Assembly (NCBI RefSeq): GCF_001677475.2
Contig: NZ_CP015229.1
Length of the DNA stretch: 64,000 bases
Source: Escherichia coli
GTDB taxonomy: Bacteria; Pseudomonadota; Gammaproteobacteria; Enterobacterales; Enterobacteriaceae
Strand: one strand, 5' to 3'
Below, one piece after another: positions 58,713 to 61,304 of this stretch. The notes below the pieces were generated by a model, which saw nothing but the letters and a program-made list of their open reading frames with translations, did no database searches and was not told the origin of the DNA. Each line of letters begins with the position of its first letter. Position 1 is the first letter of the stretch. Position numbers and translations under genes: made by a program.

Positions 58713-61304
58713 TCAGAACGACCAGACCACACCCGCCTGAGTATTCCACGGTGATTCTACCCCTGCGCCATTGCCATAGCTGACAGACAAATGACCGCTT
58801 AACGTCGGGGTAAACGATGACCTTATCCCAGCCTGATAAACGCCACGGGTTCCAGCCACATCATTATTAAATTTGCCATCGTCATTAACTTTCACCTGGT
58901 TAGAATCGGCGTATTCCTGACGCACGGCGGCTTTCAGCCAGGGTTCCAGTGTCGTACCGTTTTGCAGGTCCATGTGATAGCTTACCGCCGTTCCCGCTTC
59001 AGCGCGTAATATCCGGGTATTTCCCACATCCGCGCGCATGCCGTTTGATAACGTGTAGTCCTGACCATCTGTGGTAAAGCCGGTAAAGGCCAGATAAGGT
59101 CTAACACTCCACAATCCGTCAACCCAACGGAACCCGCTCTCGACATGAGCACCCACGCCGTTACTATTGTAATTGCCAAACGCTGTTGCCCCATTACTCA
59201 TCTTGCCATGGATGGTGTTGGAAAAACGGTCAACTTTCACCACCCCATCAACATAGGCACCGTTCTGATGCTCCCAACCGGCATAAGCCCCCAGGGTATA
59301 GCTATCGACATTGCCTTTGCCGCCGCGATCAAAACCAATATCAGAATGAGAGTAACCAAAGAACAAGCCGCGAATTGTGCTGCTTTCTTCTCGGGAGAAA
59401 CGGCTATCGATACCGAGCGTCAGCCCCGTCAATGTTTGCTCAAAGCCAGCTCCCGCATCAGTGGTCACGTTGTTGCGGGTGTTAATTGCCGAACTCCACA
59501 TCGCCGTATCGTAATTAACGCCTTTTACGCTACCAAGACGCTCACGCACGGTGTCCAGTTCTGCATCAAATACCAGCGGTTGTGCTGCCGCCATATTCAG
59601 CACATCAGTGGTTGAAGGGGTAATTTGCGCGCGATTCTCTGCCAGACTCCAGCTATGGTTGCCATTATCCAGCAAGGTATATTCATACGTACCGATATCA
59701 ACAACGCCTCCGGCATTGCCCAACGTAAATGCAGCATCACCGCCGCCCGTTGTTACCAGTGTAAGGCTATCACCTGCTGCCGGGCTGGCCCCTGTGTCCG
59801 TCACAAATATTTTGAAATCACCTGTTGCCTGACCGGTCACGTTGAGCTGATCGCTCTGATGATTAGCCATATCGGTACGCATATAAAAATTGCCGTTTCC
59901 CGACAGGGTATTAGTGGTCAATGTAATGAAATTTTCCGCACTTGCCGTCACTGATGAACGAGTCACTGGCTCATCCATCATAATCACATTTGCGTCAGAC
60001 ATCTCAAGGTTGGCTAAGTTGAGGAGGGTGTTTTGGTTCGTCGTAGTGATATCGGCAATGATGGTCCATACGCTATTTTCGAGCGAAACGTCCGCTTTGC
60101 TGGTATCCACGGCACCATGCGTTCTAAAAGAAGCGCCCTCAGAAACCACTACCTTACCCACCAACATTGCGGGCGCATAATTTATTTGCGGCTTCATGAC
60201 CTCAAGAATGCCATCATTCCCTCTGACTGAAACGTTAACCATTGTGCCAGCCCAGACGTTAGCGCGGCCATTGTTGATAACCATATTTTCAGAGATGGCT
60301 TTTGAGGAATACGTGATACTTCCATTCTGATCTGATCGACCGAGATCATATACCGCATTTGCCTGCACTCTCGTCCCAGTATCCTTTCCCAGCGATTGCA
60401 TAGTGGCATGCTCATCAAGGATAGTGTCAATGGCCTGCGTGTCCTCCATAACAATGAGCCCGGAACCATCATCCAGTTCATAATTTTTTGACACACCATC
60501 TTTTATACTAAATTGGCCTTTACTGTTTGTACCACTCACTTCCAGCGCATTCGTTGAGACAATTAATTTTCCGCCTGCTTTTTTATCAACGCCAGTTGCA
60601 GTCCCGCCATCCATAACCTCCAGTAAGCCGCCACTATCCACAGTGGTATTATAAGCGAAGTCATTTTCTTCAACTCGCAAACTTCCGCCGTTTTCCAACA
60701 ACATATTATTAGCAATACCATCCTTGATATCGAACTGACCGAGACGGTTTGTTCCGAATACCTCCATGGCCCGCGTGGTTGTTTTAATAGCACCGCCTGC
60801 TTTCTGATCTACCGCAATCGCTAATCCCCCCTCTTTAACCTCCAGTAGTCCTCCCTTTTCGATAGCGGCAAGGACGGTAATCCCATCTTTTTCAACGATT
60901 AAGCGCCCGCCTTTAATCGTGGGATCATTCGCTGCGCCATAAACCTGTAGCACACCATTATTGAGGGTAGTCTGGTTTGCCGCGCCACCCATTTGAACAA
61001 TTTGATAACCATCATTTAATACGGAGTATTCTGCGGTGCCATTCATTTCAATGTACTGATACCCGCCGTTAATTTCAGTATTACTACTTACACCAAATTC
61101 TTTTATATGCTGTTCTCCGCCAGGATTGATTTTCGTATTATTGGCGGTCCCATAAACCAGCTGGATATCTTTTTCCAGGACAACACCATCAACTGTCTCA
61201 CCATACTCAACTGTTGATGCCAATGCTATGGGTGAATATAACGCTGTAGCCACCAGAACAGATATTGCGGAACGACAAAGAGAAACAGAACCAGATTGAT
61301 GCAT
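58713..61304 (-). CDS. yejO: AIDA-I-type autotransporter adhesin-like protein (yejO-like, apparently intact)
   Basis: 863-aa ORF with signal peptide (MHQSGSVSLCRSAISVLVATALYSPIALA), repetitive Gly/Asn-rich passenger and C-terminal beta-barrel ending VVWSF. Confidence 0.8.
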   Translation of the reverse strand: MHQSGSVSLCRSAISVLVATALYSPIALASTVEYGETVDGVVLEKDIQLVYGTANNTKINPGGEQHIKEFGVSSNTEINGGYQYIEMNGTAEYSVLNDGYQIVQMGGAANQTTLNNGVLQVYGAANDPTIKGGRLIVEKDGITVLAAIEKGGLLEVKEGGLAIAVDQKAGGAIKTTTRAMEVFGTNRLGQFDIKDGIANNMLLENGGSLRVEENDFAYNTTVDSGGLLEVMDGGTATGVDKKAGGKLIVSTNALEVSGTNSKGQFSIKDGVSKNYELDDGSGLIVMEDTQAIDTILDEHATMQSLGKDTGTRVQANAVYDLGRSDQNGSITYSSKAISENMVINNGRANVWAGTMVNVSVRGNDGILEVMKPQINYAPAMLVGKVVVSEGASFRTHGAVDTSKADVSLENSVWTIIADITTTNQNTLLNLANLEMSDANVIMMDEPVTRSSVTASAENFITLTTNTLSGNGNFYMRTDMANHQSDQLNVTGQATGDFKIFVTDTGASPAAGDSLTLVTTGGGDAAFTLGNAGGVVDIGTYEYTLLDNGNHSWSLAENRAQITPSTTDVLNMAAAQPLVFDAELDTVRERLGSVKGVNYDTAMWSSAINTRNNVTTDAGAGFEQTLTGLTLGIDSRFSREESSTIRGLFFGYSHSDIGFDRGGKGNVDSYTLGAYAGWEHQNGAYVDGVVKVDRFSNTIHGKMSNGATAFGNYNSNGVGAHVESGFRWVDGLWSVRPYLAFTGFTTDGQDYTLSNGMRADVGNTRILRAEAGTAVSYHMDLQNGTTLEPWLKAAVRQEYADSNQVKVNDDGKFNNDVAGTRGVYQAGIRSSFTPTLSGHLSVSYGNGAGVESPWNTQAGVVWSF

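Follow-up and report, generated by a model that had tools for sequence, protein, structure and literature searches.

Among classical type Va autotransporters, Ag43 (Flu/Agn43) and TibA are self-associating adhesins; agn43 has a Dam/OxyR phase switch, and tibC-tibA, like aah-aidA, forms a gene pair. Here we describe a relative of these adhesins, encoded by the chromosomal gene yejO at positions 58713..61304 (minus strand) of a 64,000-nucleotide stretch of Escherichia coli DNA (contig NZ_CP015229.1, assembly GCF_001677475.2; hereafter the window). The gene, its disruption in K-12 by the insertion sequence (IS) IS5 and its uneven distribution have already been published, and its discovery value is little. 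We consider it highly probable that the window carries yejO in an undamaged state and that it encodes a type Va autotransporter of the AIDA-I/Ag43 kind.

The open reading frame (ORF) listing of the window contains an uninterrupted frame of 863 codons with an ATG start and zero internal stops, which closes with TGA, TAA following immediately; 863 stop-free codons would arise by chance with a probability of ~1e-18. ORF list, Pfam and NCBIfam domains and RefSeq annotation concur on this coding sequence, and the exact 863-amino-acid (aa) protein already has NCBI and UniRef entries, ANO89988.1 among them, under the title "autotransporter YejO [Escherichia coli]". A preliminary description of this DNA had claimed an 863-aa ORF unbroken from signal peptide to beta-barrel, and this holds, the coordinates and length being exact and the domain matches spanning the protein from the N-terminus to the barrel. 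The gene lies between tRNA-Pro (proL) and narP, from which it diverges, with narP (true start 61624), ccmH and dsbE on one side, an order identical in K-12 and 20 other genomes. A 3.3-kb query of the locus finds a match in 5,424 of the 5,426 complete E. coli genomes, annotated there as "yejO: autotransporter YejO" beside narP and tRNA-Pro. Compared with alleles annotated as yejO, the window copy is gap-free across 2,592 nucleotides (nt) at 97.2-98.5% identity, whereas the closest non-YejO representative has 46% identity. No complete RefSeq E. coli genome gives a full-length match above 98.5% to the window allele; the exact protein is found in GenBank assemblies, and public assemblies with it share the nap-ccm-narP-yejO context. 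GCA_016118665.1 aligns with the window over 15.3 kb, including the neighbouring island described below, with 0 mismatches and one gap. Because the identical protein occurs on 46 contigs (its 90%-identity cluster has 16,859 members), this is a stable lineage allele. By position and sequence, the ORF is the orthologue of K-12 yejO in an undamaged state, and the identity and structural completeness of the window YejO are close to certain. The gene is already known and named, the state seen here is a common one, and an intact copy marks nothing unusual.

Pfam recognizes AIDA repeats (2.2e-51), Pertactin at residues 431-555 (7.3e-46) and the Autotransporter beta-domain at residues 602-841 (1.4e-46), and NCBIfam TIGR01414 matches residues 456-863 over its whole model (2-432 of 432). 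The AlphaFold2 model has a mean predicted local distance difference test (pLDDT) score of 89.7 and a predicted template modelling (pTM) score of 0.72. Residues 1-28 are disordered in it (pLDDT <50), as expected of a cleaved leader, and residues 1-29 (MHQSGSVSLCRSAISVLVATALYSPIALA, then S; 61218..61304, on the minus strand like all parts of the gene given below) are likely a Sec signal peptide before Ser30. On inspection it has an n-region with Arg11, a hydrophobic core at residues 12-23, whose Kyte-Doolittle hydropathy peaks at 2.15, and A-L-A at positions -3 to -1. The passenger, residues 30-561 (59622..61217), is predicted to form a right-handed beta-solenoid with AIDA-type repeats, supported by the Pfam AIDA, TIGR04415 and Ag43 (7koh) matches and by the model, where short strands come in triplets from residue ~31 to 561. 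A self-similarity peak at a 74-residue offset reveals a 74-aa tandem unit of the passenger, residues 168-241 (60582..60803), which is also the gap of a natural variant (see below) and is modelled with the lowest confidence (pLDDT 51-76). The pertactin-like region, residues 431-555 (59640..60014), sits at the autochaperone position and is identified by the Pfam match and by pertactin (1dab) and Vag8 (7akv). Residues 563-592 (59529..59618) form the linker alpha-helix, the sole long helix of the model, and align with the region where the BrkA and EspP translocator structures begin. The translocator, residues 600-863 (58716..59507), is a predicted beta-barrel of twelve long strands (residues 600 to 862, pLDDT 93-98) according to AlphaFold, Foldseek and phmmer, and ends in ...VVWSF with a C-terminal Phe. 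In a family alignment of 91 diverse relatives, drawn from 2,187 representatives at E <= 1e-3, nine columns are invariant and all nine are kept in the window YejO. With its modelled solenoid, autochaperone, linker helix, 12-strand barrel and terminal Phe, the protein has the architecture of a complete classical type Va autotransporter of the AIDA-I/Ag43 kind. For the passenger, the Pfam and NCBIfam matches are confined to solenoid domains of the AIDA and pertactin type; catalytic domains, such as those of proteases or lipases, were not detected.

Ag43 is the top sequence and fold match of the YejO passenger (7koh: phmmer 7.9e-37, Foldseek 2.5e-22) and has the same type Va layout. YejO is nevertheless not Ag43: it is shorter and scores 143 bits with the Ag43/Cah equivalog NF033177, against a cut-off of 1200. 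The two solenoids also differ in length or curvature, since their global superposition is poor (root mean square deviation, rmsd, ~12 A). A phase variation of yejO by Dam/OxyR, as in Ag43, was ruled out, given that the 289 bp upstream (61305-61593; 37% GC) contain zero GATC sites. With AIDA-I and TibA, which are glycosylated self-associating autotransporters, YejO has in common AIDA-type repeats (PF16168) and TIGR04415, a repeat that is a heptosylation target (63 bits, cut-off 30), and it matches TibA 4q1q at 1.7e-26 (phmmer). With 72 bits against a cut-off of 1200 for the AIDA-I model NF033176, it is a relative and not a member. Unlike AIDA-I and TibA, YejO has no glycosyltransferase or heptosyltransferase gene beside it, its neighbours being narP and genes of the island (PerC-like, small terminase and others). 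The translocator resembles those of EspP (target TM-score 0.81-0.86 by Foldseek against the PDB, BAM-EspP complexes included, BAM being the beta-barrel assembly machinery) and of Bordetella BrkA (3qq2: target TM-score 0.90 and rmsd 2.8 A for the barrel, phmmer covering chain positions 3-284 of 284). Vag8 (7akv) aligns to YejO residues 459-862 and pertactin (1dab) to residues 369-558; these Bordetella proteins, BrkA among them, are homologous to YejO in autochaperone and translocator, but belong to another genus and carry other passengers, and the barrel identity with YejO is only ~22%.

The state of the gene in K-12 differs sharply. In the K-12 record NZ_CP064682, the Prokaryotic Genome Annotation Pipeline (PGAP) annotates a yejO pseudogene without N-terminus, then an IS5 transposase gene, then a 69-nt 5' fragment. 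BLAST junctions and the IS5 ends place the 1,195-bp element, with a 4-bp target duplication (ATAA), 64-67 nt after the ATG, within the signal-peptide codons; the corresponding target site is empty in the window (61238..61241). PMC11677980 lists this IS5 copy in direct orientation, with a putative PyejO upstream of it. The preliminary description was right that K-12 yejO is an IS-disrupted pseudogene: IS5 splits the K-12 match in two and the literature concurs. When IS5 and one ATAA copy are removed, the K-12 gene regains the 863-codon frame; 56 nt and 24 aa then separate it from the window copy, and the alignment contains no indel (97.8% nucleotide and 97.2% protein identity). Two wild strains have intact alleles nucleotide-identical to the K-12 allele minus IS5, so that the K-12 insertion is a recent, strain-level event. 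The absence of IS, frameshift and truncation, claimed previously for the window copy, was borne out by this alignment and by the comparison with 22 other alleles, gap-free over the 2,592 nt. So was the non-K-12 background, in view of the 56 differing nucleotides and of the tRNA-Pro island, which is absent from K-12. A compensated frameshift was considered for residues 142-146, of which only one agrees with K-12, and was rejected; the codons differ by point substitutions, intermediate haplotypes occur elsewhere, and the window has the commonest haplotype.

To gauge how common an intact copy is, we took 30 genomes, evenly spaced along the ranked list of matching complete genomes, and checked the frames in each full-length one. 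Half of them (15/30) have an intact 863-codon yejO, and one has a 74-aa in-frame deletion. Five carry a nonsense codon at position 789 (W789*, TGG to TGA), four of those also having ATT for the ATG start. IS5 interrupts the gene in two K-12 derivatives, large deletions (coverage <=45%) affect six genomes (the one fetched locus, from KS21, being annotated as a pseudogene), and one genome has no yejO. Every full-length allele in the sample is exactly 2,592 nt long, and the window YejO has none of the inactivating lesions found in other strains. The 74-aa deletion, in strain EC61 (locus L024), removes exactly one unit, residues 168-241, and leaves a 789-aa protein annotated as intact; it is a natural variation of solenoid length through repeat recombination.

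The nonsense allele is widespread. Codon 789 (58938..58940) is TGG (Trp) in the window and TGA in 5 of the 22 sampled alleles, and the window has ATG and TGG at the start codon and codon 789, against ATT and TGA in the common pseudogene allele. The codon falls in barrel strand 9 of the AlphaFold model, and the nonsense allele would lose four strands. We counted W789* with an 89-nt barrel segment in which the common variable sites are only codon 789 and one nearby synonymous site. Among the 5,426 complete genomes, 4,293 hold this segment. Exact matches to the TGA version number 1,157, one of them a partial hit, which puts W789* in at least 1,156 genomes (at least 21%), and exact matches to the two common TGG versions number 828 and 1,287; the barrel segment is missing in a further 21% of complete genomes. 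The allele was seen in O103:H2 and at the sampled loci L004, L006, L008, L009 and L011. Its copies differ by up to 28 nt and have no secondary lesions, and the 3' halves of the five sampled alleles differ by at most 2 nt, which argues for a single, fairly recent origin of W789* followed by clonal spread and recombination. We considered an old nonsense allele tolerated through read-through and rejected it, since the 28-nt spread is due to L008, a recombinant W789* allele whose 5' half resembles that of K-12, and all the 3' halves are near-identical. Wells et al. 2010, as cited in PMC3426408, found YejO in genomes of commensal and diarrhoeagenic strains and only a truncated form in those of uropathogenic E. 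coli (UPEC), without exception, and yejO is lacking in sequence type 131 (ST131; PMC5654935). To this published distribution we add that "present" includes a common nonsense allele. A "full-length yejO" in a BLAST search is therefore not equivalent to an intact one, at least a fifth of complete E. coli genomes having the nonsense codon in the barrel.

Two peculiarities of database records concern the length of YejO. The start chosen by PGAP is inconsistent, mostly the ATG (863 aa) and in some genomes (loci L002, L021 and L023) a GTG at codon 18 (846 aa) despite the presence of the ATG (window 61253-61304); the 846-aa form would begin after the n-region of the signal peptide and keep only a minor part of its hydrophobic core. 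In a library of 50%-identity representatives, the top match and apparent representative of the YejO cluster is a 771-aa sequence (P0016) that aligns to residues 19-788. It is the product of the W789*/start-loss pseudogene allele, and using it as a reference for protein length could be misleading.

Among 15 distinct intact alleles, the ratio of nonsynonymous to synonymous substitutions (dN/dS, Nei-Gojobori) is 0.20 for the whole gene, 0.26 for the passenger, 0.11 for the pertactin-like region and 0.12 for linker plus barrel; comparisons of the window with each other allele give 0.11-0.27. Judging from these ratios, intact alleles are under purifying selection, the signature expected if the lineages that keep the gene make and use its protein. 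The suggestion of the preliminary description that the adhesin may be functional agrees with this selection and with the complete predicted fold.

By inference from Ag43, AIDA-I, TibA, pertactin, EspP and BrkA, the YejO precursor would cross the inner membrane via Sec and its C-terminal domain would be placed in the outer membrane by BAM. The passenger would then be threaded out C-terminus first, the autochaperone region presumably folding first, and the exposed beta-solenoid may act as a surface adhesin or self-association factor. There is about an even chance that YejO is made and acts as an adhesin in the natural habitat of the strain. It is in any case an adhesin candidate, for which an intact allele like that of the window, and not that of K-12, would be the right template in functional studies.

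Several points weigh against an intact yejO that yields a working autotransporter. The gene is dispensable: E. coli strains have lost it in no fewer than four separate ways. The literature searched contains neither a functional characterization of yejO nor a binding or aggregation phenotype, and adhesion is proposed by homology only. Expression is doubtful. On the yejO strand, no sigma-70 consensus was found upstream of the ATG, in a scan that was uninformative as its overall hits were no more than in shuffles. The upstream DNA has 37% GC, a composition that is typical of H-NS-silenced genes and may point to such silencing here. Four residues (E434, S695, N711 and V717) are private to the window allele in the 23-allele sample, three of them in the barrel and none on a conserved family column. 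The K-12 yejO fragment was detected in 106 of 3,325 RNA sequencing (RNA-seq) samples, among the ten fewest-detected annotated genes (PMC10392735), a figure confounded by the position of IS5 between promoter and gene body. Finally, serum antibody binding recombinant YejO was found in 73 of 141 (52%) healthy people (PMC11242715), which speaks against silence, but this reactivity could be a cross-reaction with related autotransporters.

Some of these points lead to a different view of the gene, according to which an intact yejO would be transcriptionally silent (cryptic) under most conditions, for example through H-NS silencing. This overlaps with the reading of an undamaged autotransporter gene, and we hold it to be quite possible, if somewhat short of evenly balanced. 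Silence would agree with the rare detection of the gene in the K-12 samples, the missing sigma-70 consensus, the low upstream GC content and the dispensability shown by repeated loss across lineages, and several K-12 autotransporter adhesins are cryptic in the laboratory. Yet the dN/dS among intact alleles suggests that the protein is made and selected somewhere, half of the human sera react with YejO, and the K-12 transcript data suffer from the confounding effect of IS5.

A surface autotransporter with a main role other than adhesion, be it enzymatic, toxic or that of a phage or immune target, is improbable. The lack of a binding phenotype in the literature searched would be compatible with it, and the combination of lineage-specific loss with commonly occurring human antibodies would suit a surface antigen that is costly; the domains detected, however, are all of the AIDA and pertactin-type solenoid class, catalytic ones being absent, and the best fold and sequence matches of the passenger are the self-associating adhesins Ag43 and TibA. 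We regard as very improbable a hidden pseudogene, open in frame and inactivated by missense changes or a defective start, for although there are the four private residues with three in the barrel, the alleles annotated from GTG codon 18 without signal peptide and a modest ribosome-binding site, the private residues lie off conserved columns and all invariant columns are retained, the barrel model is confident, the ATG is present and PGAP picks the 863-aa start in most genomes, the identical protein recurs on the 46 contigs, and dN/dS between the window and other alleles is low.

About half of the genomes keep yejO under purifying selection and the rest have destroyed it independently, through IS5 in K-12, through W789*, usually with the ATG-to-ATT change, and through large deletions in UPEC-type strains. 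Such a pattern, together with the YejO-binding antibodies of half of healthy people, could come from opposing pressures on the gene, a reading that we think rather unlikely. If the losses were adaptive, for instance as an escape from host antibody or from a YejO-using phage, intact alleles would mark the lineages or niches that still use the adhesin.

The presumed yejO promoter and ribosome-binding site are located in the divergent yejO-narP intergenic region (61305..61623), as indicated by its GC content, an AGGA 10 nt upstream of the yejO ATG, which makes a modest ribosome-binding site, and its identity to K-12: together with the first yejO and narP codons it is 99.6% identical to K-12 over 463 bp. 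In the presumed leader, ~40 nt upstream of the ATG (window 61345-61363, minus strand), there is a terminator-like hairpin of 7 pairs with a T-rich tail. This may be an attenuator or have arisen by chance; the sequence here is too conserved for covariation. An 85-aa ORF at 61335-61592, upstream of yejO, was taken as spurious; it lies in AT-rich intergenic DNA and is unannotated in the 24 RefSeq loci inspected. Downstream of the stop, two hairpins occupy 58621..58703 (minus strand), one at 58670-58703 and the other an intrinsic terminator with a U-run at 58621-58651, for which the terminator scan gives a 13-pair stem and a T-run; RNA folding downstream of the stop gives -41.2 kcal/mol (z = -5.45).

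Beyond this terminator, yejO adjoins an island, as the preliminary description had stated. The tRNA-Pro gene lies at 47540-47616, and its 3' terminal 15 nt (CTCTCGTGCCGACCA, from 47602) are exactly repeated at 58597..58611 (plus strand), the attR of the island, outside yejO and 101 bp past its stop. The ~11-kb element thus delimited (window 47617-58611) encodes an integrase, a D5-type primase, AlpA, a lambda-type major head protein (gpE-like) and a head decoration protein (gpD-like), and further carries a Nu1-type small terminase and a PerC-like activator. It is a phage satellite in tRNA-Pro, with a gene set like that of phage-inducible chromosomal islands (PICIs). No portal, protease or large terminase was seen in the island, and the set is therefore not the full one of a capsid-forming PICI; PADLOC gave no hits among its unassigned ORFs. 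Since the island ends past the terminator (island-free genomes align from window 58593 onward), it leaves yejO unaltered. In annotation, the window copy should be given the 863-aa start and be called intact. Strains that share this yejO allele or have a related one hold other satellites in this site (L004 and L026), and in Shigella flexneri phage integration at the junction of tRNA-Pro and yejO has been published (PMC4924310). With tRNA-Pro being a known integration site, the adjacency of yejO and the island is incidental.

The gene of the PerC-family activator (window 57681-58052, plus strand) is at the right end of the island, with ~660 bp between it and the yejO 3' end. Regulators of the PerC/Pch type that are carried by mobile elements can switch on virulence genes of the chromosome. 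In a scan of the whole window, Rfam matched only tRNA-Pro and the L25 leader, none near yejO. The latter is an ordinary L25 ribosomal-protein leader (RF03131, 46.9 bits; window 43799-43824, plus strand), as expected upstream of rplY.

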